DNA of 64,000 bases from Candidatus Shapirobacteria bacterium (GTDB lineage: Bacteria; Patescibacteriota; Microgenomatia; UBA12405). This document shows, one piece after another, positions 2,052 to 58,388 of this stretch (the first letter of the stretch is position 1; every line of letters begins with the position of its first letter). The stretch is from positions 693 through 64,692 of the forward strand of contig JACPHO010000006.1 of the NCBI GenBank assembly GCA_016188545.1. The letters run 5' to 3'. Under the pieces are notes generated by a model that did no database searches, had not been told where the DNA came from, and saw only the letters and a list, made by a program, of their open reading frames with translations. The position numbers and the translations under genes are program-made.

Positions 2052-2471
2052 TTAAGATAAAAACGCCTCAATAATCAACTCTTCAGACTCTTTTTTTGAT
2101 AATCCTCGACTCATCAGATAAAATATTTGCTCTTCATCAATTCTCCCTACTGACGCTGCGTGCGAAGCCTTAACCTCATTACATTCAATCTCAAGTTCTG
2201 GGATCGCTTCGGCTCGGGCATTTTCTCCCACAAGTAGTACTTTCTGTCTCAAAAACCCCTCAACCAACTCTGCCCCATTAGCAATAATAATCGTCCCTTT
2301 AAGTTTTAAAAAAGCGTTCTCTCGAACTACAGCCCGAATTTCCACCTCTCCAGTCTGACGTGGTTTGGTATATCTGGATACAGTTGTTAGGTTTACCGTC
2401 TCCCCCGGATTCACCACTAAAATCTTTTTCAGATTCAATCCGTTGTAGTTAATATTTATTACTTTTGTCAT
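2052..2471 (-). CDS. sufD: SufD-like Fe-S assembly protein (short, C-terminal domain only)
   Basis: 139 aa; the C-terminal block (HAASVGRIDEEQIFYLMSRGLSKKESEELIIEAF) parallels the SufB C-terminus ([34 protein letters not shown]); positioned between sufB and sufS. Confidence 0.7.
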   Translation of the reverse strand: MTKVININYNGLNLKKILVVNPGETVNLTTVSRYTKPRQTGEVEIRAVVRENAFLKLKGTIIIANGAELVEGFLRQKVLLVGENARAEAIPELEIECNEVKASHAASVGRIDEEQIFYLMSRGLSKKESEELIIEAFLS

Positions 2472-6189: not shown

Positions 6190-6819
6190 ATTAGTTTATC
6201 ATAGAGGTAGCTATTCTTTTATCGGCTTTTAGTGTTCTACTTTCTGCAAAAAGCTTGAAAGATATTTTTCTTTTAACGATCAAAGATACGAGCCCACCTT
6301 TGTATTACTTTTTGCTTCATTTTTGGTTGTTTATTTTATTTCTGCTCTTTGGGTATCAATATTTCACGAGAGATATTTAATACCAATTTTACCGATTTTT
6401 ATTATTTGGATAGTTTATTCTTTATTTAAATTGTCCAACTTAAATAAAACCATTATCATATGTCATTTTTGCTATCAGTATTTCTTATGTTATCTTTCTG
6501 GTTCGAGGTTCTGAAGAAATAGTTAAAAAGACAACTAAACCTGCTATTAATTATGGTGTTTCTCAAGTTCTTTCTCAAATTGGTAGTGACGATGTAATAA
6601 TTCCAGAATCGGAACTTAATTTTTTGGAAATTAAATATTACGTAAAAAAACAGAGGCCAGATATACCTGTATATGTCTATTTACCTAATAGAAATCCCGT
6701 ATTCTATATTGGTTCGGTTTTATTTGAAGAAAGTGAAATTATTGATAAATATCCAGAAAATAAAAAGATTTGGATTATTACAAAAGATGGAAAGGTTCCA
6801 AGCCTCACAACACCGCCAA

Positions 6820-8905: not shown

Positions 8906-8942
8906 CATGGTATTCTTAGTTGTTAATGTTTAATCTCTTCCC

Positions 8943-9260
8943 ATGAATATTCAGATCATTGGTGATAACTTTAACGTCTCTCAAAGCACTAAAGACCTTG
9001 TTGAAGAAAAAGTCGGTAAACGATTAGATAAACTCCTGACTAAGTTTGCCCCGGAAATGAAAATAGTCCTGATGCATATTGAAAAGGATAAATTTGACAA
9101 CCTTCACATCAACTTGGATATGAACCTCCCAGGTAAAGAACACATCTTTGCTAACACCTCACACAAAATTCTTGAGTCAGGACTAATTCACCTCGCTGAA
9201 GAAACAGAAAAACAAATTAAAAAATATAAAGACAAACTCGCTAACTATAGCCTGGGTTAA
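8943..9260 (+). CDS. hpf: Ribosome hibernation promoting factor (HPF/RaiA, short form)
   Basis: 105 aa; MNIQIIGDNFNVSQSTKDLVEEKVGKRLDKL matches the HPF/YfiA N-terminal pattern. Confidence 0.75.
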   Translation: MNIQIIGDNFNVSQSTKDLVEEKVGKRLDKLLTKFAPEMKIVLMHIEKDKFDNLHINLDMNLPGKEHIFANTSHKILESGLIHLAEETEKQIKKYKDKLANYSLG

Positions 9261-14506: not shown

Positions 14507-14757
14507 TATATTATTAGCTCACCAGTAAATCAACCACCACTTCTAATTTACTTCTACTTAAGTATCCCCATCCTGATTACAGGTGTGGATAAAATAATAA
14601 TTTAAAGAAGTAATCGTTTTTATAGTCTGTTTCCCTGTCCGCCTGTGGCGGAAACCTGCATTGCAGACTTGATTCTCGTCAATAAAAAATGGTTACAAGG
14701 ACTTGATAAGTTTTAGTTATAAAAAATATCAAAAAAGTTTTTAGGTACAATACACTC

Positions 14758-25064: not shown

Positions 25065-27848
25065 GTGCTCAAAAAAATATTTTCCTCACCATTTTTTTAC
25101 CCATCGCTCCTAACTATTGTTTTGTCGTTAATTTGTTTCGCCAATTATGTTCCCAACACCTATCTCACCGGCTGGGACAATCTCATGCCCGAACTCAATA
25201 TTTGGATGAACCTCAAGAGGTCACTTTTTGCTGTCTGGCAAGAATATCAAGGCCTTGGCCTTGTTGGTGGTATGGGCCACGCCACAGATTTGATCCGACA
25301 ACTAATTATTTTACCCTTTACTCTAGTTCTCCCTACCAATCTCATCCGCTATCTCTGGCATTTTGCCATGCTATTTCTTGGAACATTTGGAATCTATTTT
25401 GGTGTCAACAAATTATTCTTAAATCATAAATCATATTTCATAATTCCTTTTTCAAGTGCCCTATTTTATCTTCTCAATTTTGGCACCATCCAGTATTTTT
25501 GGGCTCCCCTCGAAACTTTTTCCACTTTTTGGGGATTTTTCCCTTGGCTTATATTCTTCCTTTTTGACTATCTCGAAACACCAAACAACAAAAACCTCAA
25601 AAAAATATTTTGGATAAACCTGCTCGCCATCCCCTCATTTTATGTTCAGACTCTATTTGTAGTCTATATGTTATGTGTTTCTCTTATCCTTTTTTCTCAC
25701 TTTGTATTCCATTTTAGAAGTTGGAAGTTAGAAGTCGGAAATTCCATCAGAACTATTCTACTGATCTTGCTCATCAATAGTTTCTGGCTCCTGCCTCAAA
25801 TTTACTTCCTAAAAGAAAATCTTCACAGTCCGATTGCCGGGATTGGCAACTTCATGTCCTCCGAAGAAAGCTTTACCCGTAATCAAAACCGTGGCTATCT
25901 TTCCGATTTTCTTATTTTACGGAACTATTACATCGATTTTCCCGACTCCCAAGGACCATTTATGGCACCATGGATTGTCCATTTTTCCAGTCAATATATC
26001 CTTATTTGTGGATATATCATCGGGTCTTTGACTATTTTTGGATTAATATTTCTTCTGTCTGCTCCAAAACAGCTTAGTTTCAAAAAGCTCTCAGTAGTTT
26101 TTATTTTCCTACTTTCTGCCCTCACCTTACTTTCAGCCACACCACCCTTTTCTGGATTCAATACCCTTATTCGTTTTTCAGACTTACTCAACCAAATATT
26201 TCGAGCCCCTTTCACCAAATTTATAGTCCCCACCATTTTTTCTTTTTCCTTGCTTATTGCTTATGGGCTCCATGCTTTAGCTCAATTTTTCACCCAAATT
26301 AAGTATTCCCAAAAAGTATTTACTCCACTATTTTTTATTTTTTACTTTTTACTTTTATTCACTTTCTCCTTTCCTGTCTTTAAAGGCAATCTATTTTCCA
26401 GCAAAATGCGACAAACAATTCTACCTGAATATTTTGAGATGTTCAGACACCTCCAAGCCAAATCTCCAACAGCCCGAATCAGCAACCTCCCTTCTGGTTC
26501 TTTTTGGGGATGGACAAATTATTTGTGGGGCTATCGAGGCTCAGGTTTTATTTGGTACTCTCTCCCCCAGCCAATACTCGACCGTGCCTTTGATGCTTGG
26601 AACCTAACGAATGAACAATACTACTGGGAAATCAATCTAGCTCTCCAAAAAAGAGACCCCATCCTCCTTTCTCAAGTTCTAAAAAAATATTCGATTGAGT
26701 ATATTTTGTTTGACAACAACATCTATTTTCCCGACGAATTTATCTATGCCAAACAAAGCGTAGCTACTCCCAGTTTGTTACTACAAACACCAGGTGTCTT
26801 TCTCGATCAAAGGTTTGGCAATATAAGTCTTTACAGAACTTCAGTTACTACCTCTCCATACCTTCTCACCAACCCTACCAACAGCTCCAACTCAGGTTTC
26901 CTATCTGAAGACAGTATCTACGTCCAACACCAAGACTACATCTCCACCCCATCAACTCAGAGCCTAGATTATCCTTTTGTCAATTTATTTACCAACCGTC
27001 TCCAAAACGAAATCCCCTACCAATTTAAAGTTGACAGTGACACACTTTCTATTTCACGCAAGTCAGACAACTACAAAACAACTATTCCATTAGACAATTC
27101 CATTAATATAACCAAGAATAAATCCAAAAACATCAGTCTTTTATCCAACCGCCACAATTCTCAGCTCCTTGCTTACAACTTTCCTAGCGCCACTTTATCA
27201 AAGTCGTACCTCATTCAGGTCAACTACCAATACCTCACCGGGCTGCCACTAACAATATCTGTCAACAGTGACAACCTACAACAAAAATATCTATACACCA
27301 AACTTGACAAAAAAACTGGGCTTCAGAACGCATGGTTTGTAATCCCAGCTCGGGAAACAGAGAACTATAACCAAGGTATTACAGTGGTTTTCAACAACAC
27401 CTCATTTAGCAAATTTCTAACCCAAAACAAAGTCGTCGACGTGAACATATATCCCATCCCTCTTTTCGATTTAATCCGACAATCAAGTCCCAAATCAAAT
27501 CAAATTTCTAGCAGATCCGACCTAAAATTCAAAAGCGATATCTATCATTACCAAGTTGATGTTGACTCAAATTCAACATCAAATTCCACTCTCGTCCTCC
27601 CTCAGTCCTTCTCTCCTGGCTGGCTCGCCTTCTATTTTAATTGTAAGGGTAATGCTTTATGCTTACCTACTCTCCTATCCAACCATGTCCTCATCAACAA
27701 TTGGGCCAATGGTTGGCTTGTCTCGCCGAAGCCAACCAGCGAAGGCGGAGCATTTACTATCTACATCTTCTTTTGGCCCCAGCTTCTGCAATTTCTTGGC
27801 TTTGGACTACTTATTGGCACCTTTATCTGGATTTTGAAAAAACACTAA
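25065..27848 (+). CDS. YfhO-like GT-C family membrane glycosyltransferase
   Basis: 927 aa; about 14 N-terminal TM helices, a large soluble C-terminal domain and a final C-terminal TM (LQFLGFGLLIGTFIWILKKH): YfhO/GT-C topology. A GT2 gene lies upstream. Confidence 0.55.
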   Translation: MLKKIFSSPFFYPSLLTIVLSLICFANYVPNTYLTGWDNLMPELNIWMNLKRSLFAVWQEYQGLGLVGGMGHATDLIRQLIILPFTLVLPTNLIRYLWHFAMLFLGTFGIYFGVNKLFLNHKSYFIIPFSSALFYLLNFGTIQYFWAPLETFSTFWGFFPWLIFFLFDYLETPNNKNLKKIFWINLLAIPSFYVQTLFVVYMLCVSLILFSHFVFHFRSWKLEVGNSIRTILLILLINSFWLLPQIYFLKENLHSPIAGIGNFMSSEESFTRNQNRGYLSDFLILRNYYIDFPDSQGPFMAPWIVHFSSQYILICGYIIGSLTIFGLIFLLSAPKQLSFKKLSVVFIFLLSALTLLSATPPFSGFNTLIRFSDLLNQIFRAPFTKFIVPTIFSFSLLIAYGLHALAQFFTQIKYSQKVFTPLFFIFYFLLLFTFSFPVFKGNLFSSKMRQTILPEYFEMFRHLQAKSPTARISNLPSGSFWGWTNYLWGYRGSGFIWYSLPQPILDRAFDAWNLTNEQYYWEINLALQKRDPILLSQVLKKYSIEYILFDNNIYFPDEFIYAKQSVATPSLLLQTPGVFLDQRFGNISLYRTSVTTSPYLLTNPTNSSNSGFLSEDSIYVQHQDYISTPSTQSLDYPFVNLFTNRLQNEIPYQFKVDSDTLSISRKSDNYKTTIPLDNSINITKNKSKNISLLSNRHNSQLLAYNFPSATLSKSYLIQVNYQYLTGLPLTISVNSDNLQQKYLYTKLDKKTGLQNAWFVIPARETENYNQGITVVFNNTSFSKFLTQNKVVDVNIYPIPLFDLIRQSSPKSNQISSRSDLKFKSDIYHYQVDVDSNSTSNSTLVLPQSFSPGWLAFYFNCKGNALCLPTLLSNHVLINNWANGWLVSPKPTSEGGAFTIYIFFWPQLLQFLGFGLLIGTFIWILKKH

Positions 27849-28579: not shown

Positions 28580-29650
28580 GTGAACAATACTATTGTTAAC
28601 CTACCTCATACTCGACAACTTATTGCCAAAAATAATCATAGTTGCCGCAAACTACCACAGAAAGTCGCCATCATCTACACCGACGAAAAAAGGGAATATT
28701 TCTATACAGAGGAAGAATTTTGGACAGTCGAAGGTTCTGAAGATGAAGCTCGCGAATTTCAACCTTACTTTGACCAACTAAATATCCAAACCTGTTATCT
28801 CAAGGGCGATTCAAATCTAGTTAAAAACCTCCGCCATGAAAAACCAGATATGGCTCTTAATCTCGTTACTACTGTCAAAGGATATGACTATCTCGGCGCC
28901 ACTATTCCTGCCACTCTAGAACTACTAGAAATACCTTATACTGGTGCCGCTATATTGGGATTTTCCCTTGGTTGTAATAAATATCTAATATACGCTCTCT
29001 TATCTCAACACGGAATCCCTGTACCTAGATTCCAACTACTTACATCAACCAAATCAACCATTGACCCATCACTCCGTTACCCTTTGATTCTCAAACTAAA
29101 CGAAGAGCATAGTAATGTTGAAATTAAACGGGAATCAATCGCTGAAAATGAGACTCAATTGCGTAAACGACTCCGTTATCTCATTAATAAATACGAACAG
29201 GATGTCCTCGTTTCCGAGTTTATTGACGGTCGAGAATTTGGTGCCTTCGTCTTCCAGTCATATAACAAAAAAGCCTATACAATTGAACGTAAAATTCATC
29301 TTCCCAACAACAACTCCCGACACGAATTTTTGGATTACGATATCGTCTGGGGAAATGATTACGACAACTACAAAAAATATGTCCATTATGAAAAATTCCA
29401 CGATCCTCTCCTCAACGCCTATGTCAAGAAAGCTTTCAACATTATCAAGATGGACGACTATGGAAAATTTGATATCCGGATGGACAGTCTTGGCAATTAT
29501 TACTTTATCGACGCCAATGCCAACTGCCACTTTGCACCTCTCACCGGCAGTTCATCAGAATTATCAATTGCTATGAAAATGTATGGAATTTCCTTCAAAA
29601 CTCTTCTCAAACGTCTACTACAAAACACCATGCGGGAATGGGGCTATTGA
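28580..29650 (+). CDS. ATP-grasp ligase, D-Ala-D-Ala-ligase-like family (paralog 1)
   Basis: 356 aa (GTG start); LNLVTTVKGYDYLGATIPATLELLEIPYTGA, an ATP-grasp core, GKFDIRMD and YFIDANANCHFAP. Confidence 0.65.
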   Translation: MNNTIVNLPHTRQLIAKNNHSCRKLPQKVAIIYTDEKREYFYTEEEFWTVEGSEDEAREFQPYFDQLNIQTCYLKGDSNLVKNLRHEKPDMALNLVTTVKGYDYLGATIPATLELLEIPYTGAAILGFSLGCNKYLIYALLSQHGIPVPRFQLLTSTKSTIDPSLRYPLILKLNEEHSNVEIKRESIAENETQLRKRLRYLINKYEQDVLVSEFIDGREFGAFVFQSYNKKAYTIERKIHLPNNNSRHEFLDYDIVWGNDYDNYKKYVHYEKFHDPLLNAYVKKAFNIIKMDDYGKFDIRMDSLGNYYFIDANANCHFAPLTGSSSELSIAMKMYGISFKTLLKRLLQNTMREWGY

Positions 29651-29683
29651 TAATTACTAATCATCAACTATCATTAACTACAT

Positions 29684-30715
29684 ATGAATTTCAGTGACAA
29701 CTCTGATTCTCAAATAACTCCCAACCAACACCACCTTCCCCAAAAAGTTGCCATCCTTTATTCCGATGTCAAACGCGAGTTCTACGCCACCGAGGAACTC
29801 TTTCTCAGCGAAGCTGATGCCTACATTTATGCCAACGATGTTGCCAAATACGTTGCCAAAATGGGGATTGATGTCATCGCTTTAGCTGGTGACGTTGACA
29901 TGACCGACAAACTTCAAAAATATGACCCTGATATGGTGCTGAATCTCGTCGACTCTGTCAACGGAGAATCACATCTCGGTTCTTCTATCCCCGGAGTCCT
30001 GGAGGTTCTTCAAATCCCCTACACCGGTGCCGGAACACTCGGTTGGGCGCTGGGTTGTAATAAGTTTCTAATGTATCAGATACTTCAAGCCGCTGGGGTA
30101 CCGGTTCCAACTCATCAGCTAGTCAACAGCAGCAGTGACATGATTGACCCCTCCCTCCGTTACCCCCTGTTTCCCAAATTAAACAACGAACACAGTAGCA
30201 TTGGTATCGCCGACGATAGTATTTGTTACAACGAGAAAGAACTCCGAGCCAAATTAAGAGACTTGATTACCACTTACAGACAACCAGTATTGATTGACGA
30301 ATTTATTGCTGGCATCGAAGTCACCGCAGCTATCCTCGAAGGCGTCAACACTAAAGTCTATGCAGTTCAAAGAAAAGTAAAAGGTGGTAAAGAAGATGTA
30401 GTCACTTTTGATAAAAAATGGCGCGACTATCTTGACATGTCCTATACCAAATTCGAAGATCCAGTACTGAAAGGTCATGTCAAAATGGCATTTGATTTAC
30501 TGAAAATGTCTGACTATGGTCGGATTGACGTTCGTGTCGACGCTGCTGGTAGGTTCTACTTTATCGATCCTAACTGCAATCCATTTTTTGGTCCACCCAA
30601 GGAAACCCACGCAACTTACAGTATGATTCTTGACATGTACGGCGTCACTTTTGAAGAAACCCTCAAGCGAATGTTCCAAAATACCCTCGAAGCCGAACAT
30701 AACGGCTGGCATTAA
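29684..30715 (+). CDS. ATP-grasp ligase, D-Ala-D-Ala-ligase-like family (paralog 2)
   Basis: 343 aa; same architecture as paralog 1 (LNLVDSVNGESHLGSSIPGVLEVLQIPYTGA, GRIDVRVD, YFIDPNCNPFFGP). Confidence 0.65.
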   Translation: MNFSDNSDSQITPNQHHLPQKVAILYSDVKREFYATEELFLSEADAYIYANDVAKYVAKMGIDVIALAGDVDMTDKLQKYDPDMVLNLVDSVNGESHLGSSIPGVLEVLQIPYTGAGTLGWALGCNKFLMYQILQAAGVPVPTHQLVNSSSDMIDPSLRYPLFPKLNNEHSSIGIADDSICYNEKELRAKLRDLITTYRQPVLIDEFIAGIEVTAAILEGVNTKVYAVQRKVKGGKEDVVTFDKKWRDYLDMSYTKFEDPVLKGHVKMAFDLLKMSDYGRIDVRVDAAGRFYFIDPNCNPFFGPPKETHATYSMILDMYGVTFEETLKRMFQNTLEAEHNGWH

Positions 30716-30844
30716 TTAGTCCTTTAGTGCTCTAGATCGTAAGAGCTTTAGTTTTCAAATAAGGTAAAAGTTTTAGATTGTCTTTAAATAACTTTTCAAA
30801 ATCTTCACGAGTTATTTATTAATAAAACCAAAGATTTGTTTTTA

Positions 30845-31025
30845 GGGAGGACTTTTCGCAGTCAACCTACTCTACTTATTTAATTGACTTTAAAGTCAGA
30901 CACGTTTCCAGAGTGGAGGTTTCGCAGAAGACCTGTTTTTGGTTCGGAGGTCTTCGAGAATTCAGATAACTGCCGGACGTGCGTATGAGAACAGTAGAGA
31001 CTGCAGATTATCGGTCCATGGAGGA
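30845..31025. repeat. Structured intergenic repeat element, copy A (TTTCGCAG-containing modules)
   Basis: Shares GGAnnTTTCGCAGTCA, ACGTTTCCnnAGTGGAGGTTTCGCAG and CGGnACGTGCG..TGAGA..GATTAyCGGTCC blocks with copy B at 57515..57705; sits in a convergent intergenic region. Confidence 0.55.
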
Positions 31026-31044
31026 AATGTGTTTGAGTTTATGA

Positions 31045-38709: not shown

Positions 38710-39939
38710 TTATACTGTTTTTATTTTCTTTCCACCGGCAAAAGCCACTCCATCCATCGGTCCTGGATTCCAGTGATCAGTAAACTCACTTTTTATCTTG
38801 GTTTTTTGCTTTTCATCTACTCCATCCAATACAGCATCAACAAAATCACCAACCGAGTGAAATGTACCCTCTGCCATCTCTTCATCCAATTGATTAGTCA
38901 TCCTAACAAGTTTTTGCCATTTATCAGGAGAATTGTATGTTTCCAGTAATGCCTCATCAAGATCCCCCGTGTACCAACTCAAAAATCCAAAGTTTATTGC
39001 CACCATTTTAAACCAACCAAAATTACCATTAGCGGCTTTTACCATTCTTTTTGATAAGGTTTTCATTATATCCAGCGACTCGCCTGCCCAACTTGCATTC
39101 TCCACCACCTCATTCCGCCACTTATCCTGCACTTCTGGTGCCATTCTCATTCCGAATTGAGTCATTACTGCCACTTTTCCGACATTGTAAGCCCATTCCC
39201 TCATTACCATATTAGCCAAATTCACTTCACCATTTTCAAATAACTCTTGTGCAACACCAGGAGAAAATATTGATTGTTCGTTTATCTCTATTAAATAAGT
39301 AACCACTTCTCTACCAGATAACATTAATATTTGTGACCCTTGGTTGTTTACCAAAATAGGGTCCATGTCATTTTTTAATAATTTTGCTCGCATATATATT
39401 TCTAGATCAGTGCCAGTGTTCTCGATCCCCAATTTATTATTTATTTCTTTCACCGTGCCCACACTTGTCTTTAGATCAGAAATTGACATCACTTCCACCC
39501 CGTTTTGTATAATATCCACCCGAGGATAATCCGCTAAATTACTCCCCACCACCTCATAACCATCACCTAGCTGGTCTTGCAATATGGTTATCAGCTGATT
39601 AACATTCCCGATATCATCTACCATCAAATCAATATCTGCATTTCGAGTTGAATCAAGTTTTTCAGTTAACAATCCACCCTCAGTAACCATATCCGAACAT
39701 ATCGGCACAGTCGAATCCAAAACTGGTAACACATCATCTCTTTCAATCAACATAGCCATACCCCCATATATTAAGAATTGATCATGGGTTTCTGACAGCA
39801 ACACTTCACTTACTTTTGAAAATGTTTCATTTTCATGCAAAGCTTTATATCTGTTCTCTTGGTTATAAGTCAAACCAGTTGCAATACTTATCTGAGGTTG
39901 CAAAACATCAACAAGTACTACCATTCCATCATTGTACAT
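38710..39939 (-). CDS. Hypothetical protein (cluster gene 2)
   Basis: 409 aa; no motif recognised; 6 nt upstream of gene 3. Confidence 0.45.
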   Translation of the reverse strand: MYNDGMVVLVDVLQPQISIATGLTYNQENRYKALHENETFSKVSEVLLSETHDQFLIYGGMAMLIERDDVLPVLDSTVPICSDMVTEGGLLTEKLDSTRNADIDLMVDDIGNVNQLITILQDQLGDGYEVVGSNLADYPRVDIIQNGVEVMSISDLKTSVGTVKEINNKLGIENTGTDLEIYMRAKLLKNDMDPILVNNQGSQILMLSGREVVTYLIEINEQSIFSPGVAQELFENGEVNLANMVMREWAYNVGKVAVMTQFGMRMAPEVQDKWRNEVVENASWAGESLDIMKTLSKRMVKAANGNFGWFKMVAINFGFLSWYTGDLDEALLETYNSPDKWQKLVRMTNQLDEEMAEGTFHSVGDFVDAVLDGVDEKQKTKIKSEFTDHWNPGPMDGVAFAGGKKIKTV

Positions 39940-40817
39940 TACCCCTTACACTTCGGACATTGTTTTTTCTTTTTAATAAAAAAATTTCCACAGCCATTAC
40001 ACCTCTCCAATCTCGAATCCAAACTTTCACTACTAACTACAGGAGCCATCGAAAACAAACTATTAAATGGTGACATCGTACCCAAAAGTGATGTGTTCGA
40101 TACTCCATGATTTCCTCCCATTATTTGAAAACCATTTCTCGCCATAAACATTTCCAATTGTGCCCCCCACCAAATATCCCCACCTCTTTTGGCGACTTCC
40201 GACTCCGGGCTGTTTCTAAACCTGGCAATCATCTCTTCGGCCAAATGTTTTGTTAACTGATCTTTGCTATTCCTGATCTCTTCCCAAATTTCCGAATTTC
40301 CAAACGCCTTTTCCATCATATCCCAAAGCTCACCTTCACTCTTAACATCGACTGCCAACGCCTGTTCTCTCAAGTCCTCAAGATTTCTAATTTCATCCAT
40401 TACCACTGCACCTTTTTCTTGTAGTTTTCTCACCATTTCCAACAATTCTTCTGGTGATTCATTTTTCAACACGATTCCTCGACATTCCATGGTTACCTCT
40501 TGAAATCTTCCAGTGACTATAGCTACAACTACCCGGCTTCCATCTTTATACACACTCCTTCCTAATTCTGGACTAGCCCAAACGACATAGTTGTGACCCA
40601 TCATTGCCAGCCTTCTCATATTCTGCATCCCCTCATTTTCTGCTCTACCCAAAACGCTATTCTTATCACAAGGAAAATCGGGCTCTCCATTGGCCTTGAA
40701 CCTCAGCATGTACGGGACAATTCTGTCTTTTAGTTCCGCCTTTCTATTCTCTACAAATGCCGCTGCCAATTCATCGTTTGGCGACCTACTCTCAACCAAT
40801 CTTTTTACTCTATCCAT
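39939..40817 (-). CDS. Hypothetical protein with C-terminal zinc ribbon (cluster gene 1)
   Basis: 292 aa; C-terminus CNGCGNFFIKKKKQCPKCKG; stop overlaps the start of gene 2. Confidence 0.45.
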   Translation of the reverse strand: MDRVKRLVESRSPNDELAAAFVENRKAELKDRIVPYMLRFKANGEPDFPCDKNSVLGRAENEGMQNMRRLAMMGHNYVVWASPELGRSVYKDGSRVVVAIVTGRFQEVTMECRGIVLKNESPEELLEMVRKLQEKGAVVMDEIRNLEDLREQALAVDVKSEGELWDMMEKAFGNSEIWEEIRNSKDQLTKHLAEEMIARFRNSPESEVAKRGGDIWWGAQLEMFMARNGFQIMGGNHGVSNTSLLGTMSPFNSLFSMAPVVSSESLDSRLERCNGCGNFFIKKKKQCPKCKG

Positions 40818-47816: not shown

Positions 47817-48893
47817 TTATCCCAATTCCACTGCCGATACTTTTGTAAGTTCTTGCCATTCTATAGTCTCTGGAGATACTTTTTGAACTGTTCCCTCATA
47901 TAGGTCAAAAACAAATCTATAGTTTTCATCGTTTCCGACAATTAGACAAGCACCCATTCCATAAGAGTCAGATTCTTTTCTTCTACCTAGCCCAACTTCG
48001 GACCAACTAGTTTTGGCCACAATTTCTTCATTATGTATCTGACCACCAGGCAGGTATGCCAATACCACAGGAAACTTTAATTTAAATAAAGTCATCTCAC
48101 TTGTATCAAAAATATTTTCACCTCCCAACATTGTGGTTAAAATAGACTTTATATCTTCACCACCCACTACGGCCTTAACCACCTCTTCTCGTATTTCAAT
48201 CTGTTTTTCCAAGTTAGTTTCACCTTTAAACATAGCCACCAACATTGCTACTGCCTGCAATTCAGTAAACTCCACAAATTTAGAAAATTGCTCTGCTGTG
48301 TCACCATCACCATAAAATTTATTTATAAGCATCATTGACTCATCCGACAACAGACGGTTTTCCCAGAGGCCTTTTGCTTTTTGAAAAACTCCATTCCAAT
48401 CATTCTCCACAGTCGCTTCTTTTTTTATAACTGGAGTTTCCTCCTTAGCTCTAAAACTAGCAACGGCTTTTCTCACCTCAATCATATCCACACTCTGTTC
48501 TCTTTTTTGAACAACCTCCTGCCACCTTACCATAGCAATCCAGTAAATTCTTTCCAAATAATCCTTTCGGACATCACCTTTTAACCCAGAAATGCCATAT
48601 ACATCCTGCCTCGACACTTCAGCCACCATTGCATTTCGCATCTCATCATCATGTTGCAAACGCCAATATGCACTACAAGTTGCTATCGGGTATTTTTCTA
48701 GACTCTGCATCATTGTCAGACTTACTCTAATTACAGTATCATTCACCTTAAACCCCTCTTTGATTTCATCCATAGCTAATAACACCCTTGCCTCAACCTG
48801 ATTTATTGCACCATCACCAATTTTTCGGGGCTGTCTTTCACTTGGCTGGACCATTCCCACCAAAGAATCCAACATATCTCTTCTTGCTGACAT
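47817..48893 (-). CDS. Hypothetical protein bracketed by duplicated terminator hairpins
   Basis: 358 aa from the ATG at 48893; the ORF-track N-terminus (to 48968) reads through the hairpin at 48908..48943 and is rejected. Confidence 0.45.
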   Translation of the reverse strand: MSARRDMLDSLVGMVQPSERQPRKIGDGAINQVEARVLLAMDEIKEGFKVNDTVIRVSLTMMQSLEKYPIATCSAYWRLQHDDEMRNAMVAEVSRQDVYGISGLKGDVRKDYLERIYWIAMVRWQEVVQKREQSVDMIEVRKAVASFRAKEETPVIKKEATVENDWNGVFQKAKGLWENRLLSDESMMLINKFYGDGDTAEQFSKFVEFTELQAVAMLVAMFKGETNLEKQIEIREEVVKAVVGGEDIKSILTTMLGGENIFDTSEMTLFKLKFPVVLAYLPGGQIHNEEIVAKTSWSEVGLGRRKESDSYGMGACLIVGNDENYRFVFDLYEGTVQKVSPETIEWQELTKVSAVELG

Positions 48894-48907
48894 GTAAATA
48901 TTGTAAC

Positions 48908-48943
48908 ACTGAATAAAAACCCGCTCGTCAGGGCGGTTTTTTT
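48908..48943. repeat. Second near-identical copy of the terminator hairpin (AAACCCGCTCGTCAGGGCGGTTTTTTTT)
   Basis: About 30/32 identity with 47781..47815 in the same orientation: direct repeats flanking the 358-aa gene. Confidence 0.6.
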
Positions 48944-48966
48944 TGATTTGACAATCTATACTAGAC

Positions 48967-49515
48967 ATGTTATTCTATACAAAATTGTATATGATAAATA
49001 AACTAGATATTTTATTAAAACAGCCTCAAAAAATATATCACACCAATGATTTACGAATTTTGTGGAACATCACCAAACTTACTACTCTCTACCAAACTAT
49101 ATCCCGGCTTATTAAAAAAGGTGTTTTAATTAAAATACACAAAGGGCTATATTGCACCATTCCCATTACCAATCTTGACCCCATCGAACTTGGATCTCGT
49201 CTTATTAATCGTTTTTGCTACCTCACCACCGAAACCATTCTCGCTCAAAGTGGAACCATCAATCAATCACCAAACAAAATTACGTTCGTTTCCGACATTT
49301 CCAAAAAAATTACTGTCGGCAATAACACTTATTTATACCGGCAGTTAAATGATAAATATTTATACAATAGTATTGGTATTAATCTACAACCAAACGGAGT
49401 ATTAGTTGCTTCAACCGCCAGAGCCGCTGCCGATGTGCTCTATTTTCAACCCAATTACCACTTCGACAACAATAGTATCATTATTCAAAAAGGAGTTTAT
49501 GATAGCCAACCGTAG
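48967..49515 (+). CDS. AbiEi-family antitoxin/transcriptional regulator (type IV TA)
   Basis: 182 aa; N-terminal wHTH with the characteristic ...LIKKGVLIKIHKGLY motif. Confidence 0.6.
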   Translation: MLFYTKLYMINKLDILLKQPQKIYHTNDLRILWNITKLTTLYQTISRLIKKGVLIKIHKGLYCTIPITNLDPIELGSRLINRFCYLTTETILAQSGTINQSPNKITFVSDISKKITVGNNTYLYRQLNDKYLYNSIGINLQPNGVLVASTARAAADVLYFQPNYHFDNNSIIIQKGVYDSQP

Positions 49516-50224
49516 AGTCGATATTATTCATAAAGTTCATTTATTACGAGTCTTAACTAAAATTGTTGATAATCCAATTTTATCTCAGTCACTATATTTT
49601 AAAGGTGGAACTTGCGCATCAATGCAAAATATTTTAGATAGGTTTTCTGTTGATTTAGACTTTGATATTAATCCTAAATCAAACGAAAACACTTTAAGAA
49701 CCGAATTTCACACCATTTTCAAAAAACTAGATTTCACCCTCGATCAAGAAAGTCAAAATGCTTTAGAATTTTTTCTCAAATATAAAAACGATCCAAATCA
49801 GCGTAACACTCTCAAAATCGATGCTCTAAACTTTCAGGTTAAGTCAAATTTATATGCTCCAGTTTTTCTTCCCGAAATCAACCGAATTGTAAATTGTCAA
49901 ACCAAAGAGACAATTTTTGCCAACAAATTGGTTGCCATCAAAGATCGTTTTGACAAACACGAATCAATCGCCTGCCGTGACTTGTATGACATTCATCATT
50001 TTTTCATGATTGGTTTGCAATATCGATCAGAAATCATTGTTGAAAGGACAAACCTTTCTCCTCAAAGATATTTTAAATATTTAATTGATTTCATCAAATC
50101 CAAGATTACACAAACCTTAATCGACCAGGACCTCAACACTTTACTATCACCAGAGTCATTTAATAAAATCCGCAAAATCCTCAAACCTGAAGTGCTCCTC
50201 CTATTGCAAAATCAAGAAAAATAA
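49499..50224 (+). CDS. AbiEii/AbiGii-family nucleotidyltransferase toxin (DUF1814)
   Basis: Start ATG 49499 preceded by AAGGAG; YFKGGTCASMQNILDRFSVDLDFDI matches the GGT...RxSxDxD NTase motif; overlaps AbiEi by 17 nt. Confidence 0.65.
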   Translation: MIANRRVDIIHKVHLLRVLTKIVDNPILSQSLYFKGGTCASMQNILDRFSVDLDFDINPKSNENTLRTEFHTIFKKLDFTLDQESQNALEFFLKYKNDPNQRNTLKIDALNFQVKSNLYAPVFLPEINRIVNCQTKETIFANKLVAIKDRFDKHESIACRDLYDIHHFFMIGLQYRSEIIVERTNLSPQRYFKYLIDFIKSKITQTLIDQDLNTLLSPESFNKIRKILKPEVLLLLQNQEK

Positions 50225-54153: not shown

Positions 54154-55020
54154 TTATTCTAATCCCAACTCAATTATTTTATCGAGTAGCTTTGAATACG
54201 ATATTCCAGCTGCCCTCGCCTCTTTTGGCAGTAATGAGTTTTTTGTCATCCCCGGTAAGGTATTGATCTCCAGCACAAATATTTTTCCCTCCCTAACTAT
54301 CATATCGACTCTCGCAAACCCATTCGCTTTAACAGCTTTATAAACTTTCAAAGTTATCGCCTCCACCTTTCTTTGTAATGCTGGCGATATTCTGGCGGGA
54401 CATATTTCATCGGCCATACCATCAACATATTTTGCTTCATAGTCAAAAAATGGATTTTTAGGATGAATTTCAATAATAGGTAACACTACTGGTAAGTCGT
54501 TTCCCAACACCCCACACGACAGTTCCAGTCCCTCAATATATTTTTCCACTATCGCCTCCTTACTATATTCCTTGGCTTCAACAATCGCTTTAGTCAGCTT
54601 GTTTTGTTGTTTGACAATACTCACTCCCACACTAGAACCGCCGTCCACTGGCTTAACCACACAAGGTGTTTCAGTTGTCAGTGGTGCCATTAATATCCCC
54701 TCACTCTCCATTACCTTTCGGAATATCATTTTGTCCATCCCTACCGCCGACGCCATCACTCCGCTCCCGGTGTATTTGATTCCTCTTGTTTCTAAGTATC
54801 CCTGAATCGCCCCATCCTCTCCACTCTTACCATGTAAAACCAGGAATGCGATATCTGGTTTAAATTCTGTCAGCTTATCTATCTCGCTGGGCATGTCCAC
54901 TGACAAAACTTCATATTTCTTTTTAGATAAGTTATAGACTACCTCGCTGCCTGAGTTAAGTGACACCACCCTCTCACTACTGTCTCCACCCATTAATACA
55001 GCTACTTTTAATTTTGTCAT
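54154..55020 (-). CDS. ddl: D-alanine--D-alanine ligase
   Basis: 288 aa; KVAVLMGG, FLVLHGKSGEDGAIQGYLETRGIKYTGSG, ATP-grasp C-terminal blocks. Confidence 0.8.
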   Translation of the reverse strand: MTKLKVAVLMGGDSSERVVSLNSGSEVVYNLSKKKYEVLSVDMPSEIDKLTEFKPDIAFLVLHGKSGEDGAIQGYLETRGIKYTGSGVMASAVGMDKMIFRKVMESEGILMAPLTTETPCVVKPVDGGSSVGVSIVKQQNKLTKAIVEAKEYSKEAIVEKYIEGLELSCGVLGNDLPVVLPIIEIHPKNPFFDYEAKYVDGMADEICPARISPALQRKVEAITLKVYKAVKANGFARVDMIVREGKIFVLEINTLPGMTKNSLLPKEARAAGISYSKLLDKIIELGLE

Positions 55021-57514: not shown

Positions 57515-57705
57515 CTTGAGACGTTTCCCAAGTGGAGGTTTCGCAGTAACAACTTTCAAACTATCACCAGATCGCCTATTGTTTTAGGTTGTTTTGAAAG
57601 GAACTTTCGCAGTCAGTCTGCTATTTGGTTGGAGACTGACGAGAATGTAGGTGACGGCGGTACGTGCGCTTGAGATTATGTTAGCCAGCCGATTACCGGT
57701 CCGAC
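57515..57705. repeat. Structured intergenic repeat element, copy B
   Basis: Shares three sequence blocks with copy A (30845..31025), the first two in swapped order; contains a perfect 8-bp hairpin GTCAGTCT..AGACTGAC. Confidence 0.55.
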
Positions 57706-57752
57706 TCAAAACAAGCTAAAACAACAGATATGGTGAAAAAACTTTTCAAGAG

Positions 57753-58388
57753 TTACAACGTCTCGATCTGATCCACAATCGTCACAATCTCTTGTGGCTT
57801 TCTTGCCACCCAGTTTGGAACATATCCCATCAACGCTTCCTCCGAATTATATCCCCAAGTTACCGCAATAATCCTTACTCCAGCCTTATGACTGGCAATC
57901 ACATCTTTAGTCTCATCCCCAACATAAATCAACTGATCTTTGTTTAATTTTCTTTTACGAATAACTTTTTTTAGTTTTCTGGCTTTTCCCCACATCAGTC
58001 CACTCGGAACAATATATTCAAACACTCCCTCCAATCCATTCTCACTAAAAAATCTCTGTATATTTTCTTTTGAATTTGAAGACAAAATTCCCATTTTTAT
58101 CCCCTGTTTTTGTAATTCCCGAAAAACTCCAGGCATTCCCGGAAACATATTGATGGTACTAATATCGTTTTTGAGTTCCTTAATTGCTCTTCTTCCTACT
58201 CTGATAAATTGAAACCAACTCACTCCGAATGCTTTCATGGCTTTTTTTGTCCCCAACCGCTTAAATTCTCTTTGCATTTCTTCAGTTACCGGCTCATAAC
58301 CATACTCCGGAGCCAACCGATTAAGAATTTTTACAGCCGCATCAAATGTGTCAGCAATCGTCCCATCAAAGTCAAAGACAATCTCCAT
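57753..58388 (-). CDS. HAD-superfamily hydrolase (phosphoglycolate-phosphatase-like)
   Basis: 211 aa; MEIVFDFDGTIADT (motif I), YVGDETKD. Confidence 0.75.
   Translation of the reverse strand: MEIVFDFDGTIADTFDAAVKILNRLAPEYGYEPVTEEMQREFKRLGTKKAMKAFGVSWFQFIRVGRRAIKELKNDISTINMFPGMPGVFRELQKQGIKMGILSSNSKENIQRFFSENGLEGVFEYIVPSGLMWGKARKLKKVIRKRKLNKDQLIYVGDETKDVIASHKAGVRIIAVTWGYNSEEALMGYVPNWVARKPQEIVTIVDQIETL

Follow-up and report, generated by a model that had tools for sequence, protein, structure and literature searches.

The whole stretch of DNA analyzed here, referred to below as the window, comprises 64,000 nucleotides of a Candidatus Shapirobacteria contig. A first-pass annotation had pointed to two intergenic stretches in it, 30845-31025 and 57515-57705, as copies of one structured element assembled from shuffled conserved modules, and had named a ncRNA, a MITE-like repeat and a modular terminator as options for its nature. 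The question raised by these loci was whether the two stretches were related at all and, if so, where the element began and ended, on which strand it folded and what kind of unit it was.

The three sequence blocks that had been claimed were all present in both loci where the annotation had placed them. The sequence GGAnnTTTCGCAG had four exact occurrences in the window against a chance expectation of 0.87. They were distributed as two boxes per locus, 66 nt apart in each (30849 and 30915; 57534 and 57600). The sequence ACGTGCGnnTGAGA was found without mismatch in the window solely at 30977 and 57662. A covariance model built from relatives scored the first locus (A) with 123 bits and the second (B) with 125 bits, at an E value of ~1e-33, hence the similarity was beyond chance and the two stretches were real copies of one intergenic element. 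The local hairpins described for the two loci, GAAGACC/GGTCTTC and GTCAGTCT/AGACTGAC, were also confirmed, and it was found that they represented one and the same helix, named P2b below, with a fully compensated sequence.

The position of both copies between convergent gene ends held as well. Copy A was located between the second D-Ala-D-Ala-ligase-like ATP-grasp gene and glyA, and copy B between alr-murF and a HAD hydrolase gene. Exact-sequence look-ups of the MurF and ATP-grasp proteins of the window gave no record; a MurF cluster under the name Ca. Shapirobacteria was 100% identical to the MurF of the window. Three genes of the D-Ala-D-Ala ligase family were present in the window, at 28580-30715 (+) and 54154-55020 (-). 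The canonical ddl (Pfam 187 bits) adjoined alr-murF, and upstream of A stood a tandem pair of divergent ATP-grasp paralogues (58 and 62 bits). The fact that both window copies followed genes of the D-Ala-D-Ala branch was probably a coincidence, since the copies in other genomes did not follow such genes.

The extents proposed for the two copies and the idea of shuffled modules had to be given up. The complete elements occupied 30890-31042 (A-type, 153 nt, + strand; cmsearch 123.3 bits, E 1e-33) and 57563-57737 (B-type, 175 nt, + strand; cmsearch 125.5 bits, E 2.5e-34), and no third copy was detected in the 64-kb window by the covariance model. In a MAFFT alignment A and B were colinear on the + strand and had a common 115-nt core with ~75% identity. 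In both loci the second box was followed, in the same order, by a 7-8-bp hairpin of differing sequence, CGAGAAU and nnAG, then by a CnGC...GCnG helix around ACGUGCGnnUGAGA and finally by GAUUAYCGGUCC. The swapped block order had appeared because each complete copy was preceded by a 5' fragment of the opposite subtype.

The fragment in front of A was B-type-like and spanned 30836-30889 (+), as judged by reading the sequence and comparing it with B-type 5' ends. It corresponded to the block GGAnnTTTCGCAGTCA of the earlier annotation in locus A, contained a TTTCGCAG box at 30854-30861 and a degenerate P2b-like hairpin GTCAA..TTGAC, and was not scored as a full copy by the covariance model. The fragment in front of B (57518-57546, +) was A-type (GAGACGTTTCCCAAGTGGAGGTTTCGCAG) and matched the A-type 5' ends of window A and of L001, L005 and L009 (loci outside the window are designated by L numbers). 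It started 9 nt past the murF stop codon and was cut exactly after its TTTCGCAG box. At L001, where MurF was 81% identical, an A-type copy occupied the position of this fragment and was 3'-truncated by the HAD gene. That the two TTTCGCAG boxes were 66 nt apart in both window loci was probably coincidental, and the spacing was rejected as a period, because a fragment array of the same kind at L016 had spacings of 53 and 58 nt.

Further copies were sought with the strict pattern TTTCGCAG-N22-34-CGAGAAUnnAG-N8-14-ACGUG. A scan of 185,579 species-representative genomes gave three copies, all in the Shapirobacteria MAG JBAZZE01, and one chance match, and JGI metagenomes added four distinct copies, along with two that repeated known ones and some chance matches. 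Two viral contigs matching the pattern scored 18 bits by the model and were discarded as chance, like L006, L008 and L013; no match was obtained by blastn against phage and plasmid collections. The covariance model, which was built on the 115-nt core, detected four copies within 5.2 kb at L016, a second copy at L005 and one at L019. In total, 15 copies were collected (two in the window, 12 in the fetched loci and one in L019), three of which were truncated (L001, L016:3612 and L019). The proposal of a multi-copy structured intergenic family was thus borne out by copies in related genomes, found by pattern scans and the covariance model, and by the strong covariation described below.

The family was found in a few closely related Ca. 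Shapirobacteria genomes only, with several copies per genome that were ~75% identical to each other. The copies were exclusively intergenic and often lay immediately past a stop codon; the distance from the murF stop to the start of the element or fragment was 8-9 nt in the window and in L001. When the murF region was compared among relatives, a copy followed murF in L001 (81% MurF identity) and none did so in L002 (79%) or L003 (75%). About 100 kb of related sequence was without copies, namely ~80 kb from relatives with protein identity of <=75% (L003, L020-L022) and the JBAZZE locus L002. The JBAZZE genome, copy-free at L002, had copies at other loci.

Three subtypes (A, B and C) were recognized from the sequence flanking the core, which was common to all, and each subtype had a different closing terminal stem. 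In the A-type stem 5' CAnAnACGUUUCC paired with GGAAAUGUnUUUG, in the B-type stem 5' CACCAGAUC..UUGUUUUAGnUUGUUUUGA paired with its complement, and the C-type had a closing stem of its own. This stem, P1, joined the two ends of the element, and its subtype-specific sequence covaried within the subtypes. The resulting element length was 150-200 nt.

The covariation check revealed a fold with compensatory changes beyond the controls, which is the general mark of a structured ncRNA or repeat. RNAalifold predicted 22 pairs from nine cores, 12 of them with compensatory changes. Over 14 copies of the core, standard pairs were formed in 96.3% of cells and 14 of the 22 pairs had changed on both sides. 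These values were not reached by any of 500 shuffled controls, and the pairing dropped to 24-49% when the 3' partners were slid by 1-3 columns. In C-type copies P2a had changed from UUC/GAA to UAA/UUU, a double compensation, and P1b covaried from GGA/UCC to GAA/UUC, with both P1 and P1b supported within subtypes. Both the structure and the family were considered secure.

According to the model, which is strongly supported, the fold is a tight three-way junction closed by the long subtype-specific stem. P1b directly abuts P2a, a single A joins P2a to P3, and GG leads from P3 back to P1b. P2 contains an invariant asymmetric internal loop, 5'-GCA/GA-3', between P2a and P2b, and the loop that caps P2b is rich in U (..UUGGUUGGA). 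One A is bulged out of P3, whose 29-nt loop contains the conserved ACGUGCG..UGAGA. In copy A, on the + strand, the modeled helices are the outer P1 (30891-30909 with 31023-31041), the inner P1b (GUGGA 30913-30917 with UCCAU 31015-31019), P2a (30918-30923 with 30958-30963), P2b (30927-30934 with 30948-30955) and P3 (30965-30973 with 31003-31012). The invariant internal loop of A consists of GCA 30924-30926 opposite GA 30956-30957, the linker A is at 30964, and the P3 loop with ACGUGCG..UGAGA spans 30974-31002. The corresponding + strand helices of copy B are a long P1 (57564-57597 with 57706-57736), P1b (GGA 57600-57602 with UCC 57700-57702), P2a (57603-57608 with 57643-57648), P2b (57612-57619 with 57633-57640) and P3 (57650-57658 with 57688-57697), and its TTTCGCAG box is at 57605-57612 (+).

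Several additional pairings were considered and set aside. A small hairpin of the 5' module, GUUUCC/GGAGGU, was dropped in favor of the long-range P1, which covaries. A hairpin inside the P3 loop could be formed by C-type copies only, and the hand-picked tertiary candidates GGAC/GUCC and GUUC/GAAC were inconsistent across subtypes. A naive column-pair screen for a pseudoknot or tertiary pairs between the P2b and P3 loops gave no informative signal.

The strand on which the element folds was indicated by two kinds of data. The core helices contained ten G·U cells versus two A·C cells, and in 10 of 12 copies the sense strand gave the more stable P1 duplex (sum of approximately -375 versus -316 kcal/mol). 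For copy A the P1 duplex energy was -30.4 kcal/mol sense versus -18.2 kcal/mol antisense, and for copy B it was -34.6 kcal/mol. Both the G·U pairs and the duplex energies favor the + strand of the window as the folding strand. The elements were G-rich (skew of +0.12 to +0.33) within DNA that was strongly C-rich on the same strand. A C-over-G strand bias would yield A·C mismatches and not G·U pairs, so the G·U signal would be no mutational artefact. The genomes of CPR/Patescibacteria are tiny and compact. Neutral filler would hardly be expected to form a multi-copy junction with such covariation, the more so as the G·U pairs oppose the local mutational bias.

The orientation of the copies followed the genome strand. 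At nine of nine distinct genomic sites the sense strand was the C-rich one, with a GC skew of -0.20 to -0.31, and this rule held for sense, antisense or convergent flanking genes. As four of the nine sites lay inside one 5-kb region, the two-sided binomial probability was ~0.004 if all sites were independent and ~0.03 if the clustered four were counted as one. The copies were sense after a gene in the convergent gaps of window A, window B and L014, and sense upstream of a gene at L011. They were antisense between co-directional genes at L007, in every gap of rnpA-yidD-yidC-jag-Wzy_C ligase at L016, and on both sides of jag at L005, which adjoins dnaA-dnaN.

The skew itself was surveyed in the whole window and in L001-L005 and L019-L022. 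It was -0.10 to -0.43 throughout the 64-kb window regardless of gene orientation, and five dnaA-dnaN / rnpA-yidC loci showed values of +0.04 to +0.56 on the rnpA sense strand with no flip at dnaA over 8-20 kb. The dnaA locus was therefore of no use as a guide to the leading strand, and the missing flip implies a location other than the one usually assumed for the origin of replication or for whatever causes the skew.

The orientation data bear directly on whether the element is a cis-acting feature of transcripts at gene ends. In that case P1 would stop or insulate transcription, or provide an RNase III or mRNA-stability site, in a genome whose genes appear, for the most part, to be served by individual promoters right in front of the start codon. 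A cis role would agree with the location of every copy between genes, often directly past a stop codon (8-9 nt after that of murF), with the short U runs that follow P1 in both orientations in several copies, and with the TGGTAGAAT-like -10 boxes of neighboring genes near the ATG, by which the elements would separate transcription units. Such a role is at odds with an orientation that tracks the genome strand and not gene direction; in the rnpA-yidC-jag region the element is antisense to all its neighbors. Moreover, a 150-200-nt junction with invariant unpaired loops far exceeds what a terminator or a processing hairpin needs, and the element is missing from the same gaps in relatives. A scan for intrinsic terminators scored nothing in A or B: no short G+C-rich hairpin with a U run was seen inside either element, and the only terminator-like sites lay at 30729-30746 (after the upstream gene and before A) and at 57781-57798 (inside the HAD gene). 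We consider the cis-acting role quite improbable, and of the three options named by the first-pass annotation the modular terminator is not supported, as no terminator-like site lies inside the elements. The ncRNA and the MITE-like repeat survive in a modified form.

Promoters were looked for as well. A simple consensus scan detected no sigma-70-type promoter beside either window copy, and upstream of the copies there was no conserved promoter motif; the TGGTAGAAT-type -10 boxes of the neighboring genes were absent there. In the yidC-jag-ligase genes an extended -10-like box (TGGTAGAAT or TGTGGTAATAT) ended ~7-10 nt before the start codon, as at L005 ~6405-6431 and at the equivalent positions in L016, L009 and L019. 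By their sequence, these boxes suggest gene-by-gene promoters and leaderless or very short-leader mRNAs.

Comparison of orthologous gaps showed that the occupant changed between relatives. In the window the murF-HAD gap contained a B-type copy with an A fragment; in L001 it contained an A-type copy, and in L002 and L003 no family-1 copy. The glyA gap was occupied by the A-type in the window and by the B-type in L004. In the jag-ligase gap a C-type copy was present in L005 and a B-type copy in L016, two loci with 96% identical YidC, and no family-1 copy in L009 and L019. After the Wzy_C ligase gene, a copy was found in L009, L016 and L019. At L016:3612 the orthologous copy had a mutated invariant box and had lost its 3' P1 strand, which shows that individual copies can decay.

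In L002 and L003 the murF-HAD gap, where the window has B, was filled by a second repeat family (family 2), a long hairpin of ~85-100 nt with the layout GAAGUAAUC-UUUUUUAUUGCC-UGUUUCAAC-(variable hairpin)-UUGAUUCUC-GGCAAUAAAAAA-UGGUUAC-GAGAA. The two gaps had been considered as holding divergent members of family 1; no alignment with that family was obtained. Family 2 was located at 14608-14705 (+) in the window, 8925-9015 (+) in L003, 11330-11420 (+) in L002, and ~1491-1570 and 2141-2225 (-) in L009. The L009 members filled the yidC-jag and jag-ligase gaps, in which L005 and L016 have family-1 copies. Compensatory changes were present in 9 of its 31 predicted pairs, UGGUU.CGAGAA was common to both families, and in the four skew-measured loci (window, L002, L003 and L009) family 2 lay on the C-rich strand, like family 1.

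Fragments adjoined complete copies in the window, L007, L014 and L016. Those ending at or just past the TTTCGCAG box were 5' fragments (two in the window and two at L016), and 3' fragments followed the copies at L007 and L014. At L016 1150-1303 (+) a complete C-type copy was immediately preceded by two successive B-type 5' modules, which made up a small array of 5' ends and were cut <=3 nt after the degenerate TTTCGCAG boxes TTTCACAG (1185-1192) and GTTCGTTG (1238-1245).

Such arrays recall a guide-RNA module, that is, a mini repeat-spacer array with a scaffold RNA, resembling CRISPR/tracrRNA, omega-RNA or bridge RNA, the repeat being a 27-nt unit that ends in TTTCGCAG at a spacing of 53-66 nt. 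The box-bearing 5' modules did stand in tandem upstream of the conserved structured 3' part, both in the window and at L016 1185-1303, and on the opposite strand the unit ended in a GAAAC-like sequence. This reading is nonetheless very hard to sustain, for the box units within each locus belonged to different subtypes and were ~60% identical, and the "spacer" was the P1 strand of the next copy, for which reasons a CRISPR array was rejected. The variable 5' segment was fully paired with the 3' end in P1 and would leave no free guide, no cas, tnpB, iscB or IS110-type gene was present in the window or beside any copy, and no credible Rfam match was obtained at E <= 10.

Signs of transposition were examined in the same loci. 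Among the ~50 ORFs of the window no transposase, reverse transcriptase, integrase, TnpB, HUH or cas protein was found, and the 64-kb window contained no related autonomous transposase element. No consistent direct repeat that could represent a target-site duplication flanked the copies; window B alone had AACTTTCAA / AACTTTTCAA on its two sides. The empty sites of relatives were too diverged to align, and for this reason no clean junction of empty versus filled sites was obtained.

Several ORFs of the window were recorded in passing. A 927-aa ORF at 25065-27848 (+), ~3 kb upstream of A, had no Pfam match at E <= 0.001, and neither had the ORFs at 38710-39939, 39939-40817 and 47817-48968. A type IV toxin-antitoxin (abortive infection) pair, consisting of an AbiEi-like antitoxin with its AbiEii nucleotidyltransferase toxin, was encoded at 48967-50224 (+); it was inserted between a DnaK-like gene and the region of the ribosomal protein L1 gene.

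It was proposed that the copies constitute a new lineage-specific family of structured dispersed repeats that act as RNA or single-stranded DNA, and we give this reading about an even chance. It fits best because the host range is narrow, the copies are diverged and turn over, fragments lie adjacent to them, and the strand rule is independent of the genes. The element would then be a non-autonomous unit that spreads, or is replaced locally, by insertion or recombination beside resident copies, with breakpoints that cluster immediately downstream of the TTTCGCAG box. Copies would persist or propagate only if they retained the fold, and this would produce the compensatory changes across subtypes. 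A trans-acting protein, with its gene at another place in the genome, may dock on the invariant loops. The fold would most likely act as + strand RNA, or as that strand in single-stranded DNA. A replication-coupled single-strand step could account for the strand rule; alternatively, copies with the more stable hairpin on the lagging-strand template might be lost preferentially. Counting against a dispersed repeat are the lack of a mobilizing enzyme among the ~50 window ORFs and the within-genome identity of ~75%, which gives no sign of a recent burst.

The copies at conserved positions could equally well be old paralogous genes. The main rival explanation is accordingly a set of paralogous genes on the + strand for a trans-acting small RNA or RNP component, each with its own promoter, where the junction and invariant loops bind a host protein or target, the subtypes are diverged paralogues and the fragments are decayed duplicates. 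The structure was strongly selected in every complete copy, the G·U pairs support one transcribed strand, and the terminator-like hairpin at 30729-30746 splits A from the upstream gene, so that A would need its own transcription start. The age of the within-genome copies (~75% identity) and the positions common to several genomes, such as that after the Wzy_C ligase gene (L009, L016 and L019), agree with it too. Against it stand the very narrow distribution, with ~100 kb from relatives, including the JBAZZE locus L002, free of copies, and the variation of subtype at orthologous gaps, together with the truncated orthologous copy L016:3612 with its mutated invariant box. No conserved promoter motif was present upstream, and four copies in one 5-kb operon region would be unusual for regulatory RNA genes. 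Small-RNA genes thus explain the structural selection equally well, and the turnover, clustering and missing promoter motif less well; we regard them as possible, though doubtful.

It may further be imagined, as an improbable proposal, that the element is the non-coding half of an undescribed CPR mobile or recombination system that is strand-specific and replication-coupled. The junction would be a ribozyme or the recognition RNA or single-stranded DNA of an enzyme, and TTTCGCAG the site of insertion or recombination. Under this reading, the adherence of family 2 to the strand rule hints that both families depend on one strand-linked mechanism in genomes of such extreme skew.

Searches in Rfam and the literature found no described non-coding RNA or repeat family of CPR/Patescibacteria. 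If the copies are an RNA gene family, a lineage-specific RNP would be added to organisms known mostly via protein inference. If they are mobile, the strict orientation and the breakpoints at one 8-nt box would point to a single-strand, replication-linked mechanism. For either case, the alignment and model are a ready probe for whole-genome and metatranscriptome scans.

The element was finally compared with known families. Among the 4227 models of Rfam 15, none matched the element at the gathering threshold, and the only gathering-level matches in the window were four tRNAs. At E <= 10, B had no match and A had four sub-threshold matches at chance level; the gathering score was not reached for families that included self-cleaving ribozymes, 6S, SRP, Y RNA and HEARO. 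A literature search on non-coding RNA, structured RNA and MITEs of CPR/Patescibacteria and on GC skew of Shapirobacteria found nothing relevant. Like the multi-copy motifs of unknown function in Rfam, the element is intergenic and has a covarying secondary structure; unlike them, it matches no such model at the gathering score.

Other known types were compared by their defining features. The hallmark of a MITE is a terminal inverted repeat that is conserved between copies and serves as the transposase binding site. A classical MITE was rejected, as the P1 termini differed completely among the A, B and C subtypes and covaried like an RNA helix, with the interior conserved. Inspection by eye of both strands revealed no ORF conserved in frame or start between copies, and a type I toxin-antitoxin locus (ibs/sib, hok/sok), considered because such loci too are multi-copy, tandemly decaying repeats, was rejected. 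An attC site was likewise dismissed, since no R'/R'' core sites were seen by eye at the ends of P1.

The closest resemblances were to two kinds of elements. ERIC/IRU, Correia/NEMIS, the pneumococcal BOX and RUP are often co-transcribed with neighboring genes, and for ERIC a preservation of the RNA hairpin by compensatory changes has been reported. As in those families, the copies are intergenic, multi-copy, non-coding units of 100-200 nt with hairpin-forming inverted repeats, and occur as full and as partial or modular copies. Those repeats are essentially single long hairpins with conserved termini, whereas in the present element the P1 termini vary by subtype and the three-way-junction core and invariant loops are conserved. 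It further differs from them by an apparently low copy number, by its restriction to a single CPR subclade and by an orientation that follows genome strand asymmetry.

With the PATEs of IS200/IS605 and other single-strand, replication-coupled elements it has in common a strand-specific fold and the lack of terminal inverted repeats with a conserved sequence. In the IS200/IS605 kind the target is not duplicated, orientation is coupled to the replication strand and insertion takes place beside a specific short sequence, to which the clustering of breakpoints just 3' of TTTCGCAG may be likened. However, the left-end and right-end hairpins of IS200/IS605 are alike, whereas P2 and P3 are unrelated in sequence and shape, and no Y1/HUH transposase or TnpB was seen with the element. 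If the G-rich strand is the leading one, IS608-type insertion would also place the fold on the strand opposite to the one observed. After a nested insertion the 3' part of the recipient should still be there, and no such remainder of a disrupted copy was present in the window or at L016; an IS200/IS605-type PATE was rejected on the basis of the unlike hairpins and the missing remainder. The element belongs neither to the ERIC-like repeats nor to the IS200/IS605 type, because it lacks conserved termini, is built around a three-way junction and carries unlike hairpins at its ends.
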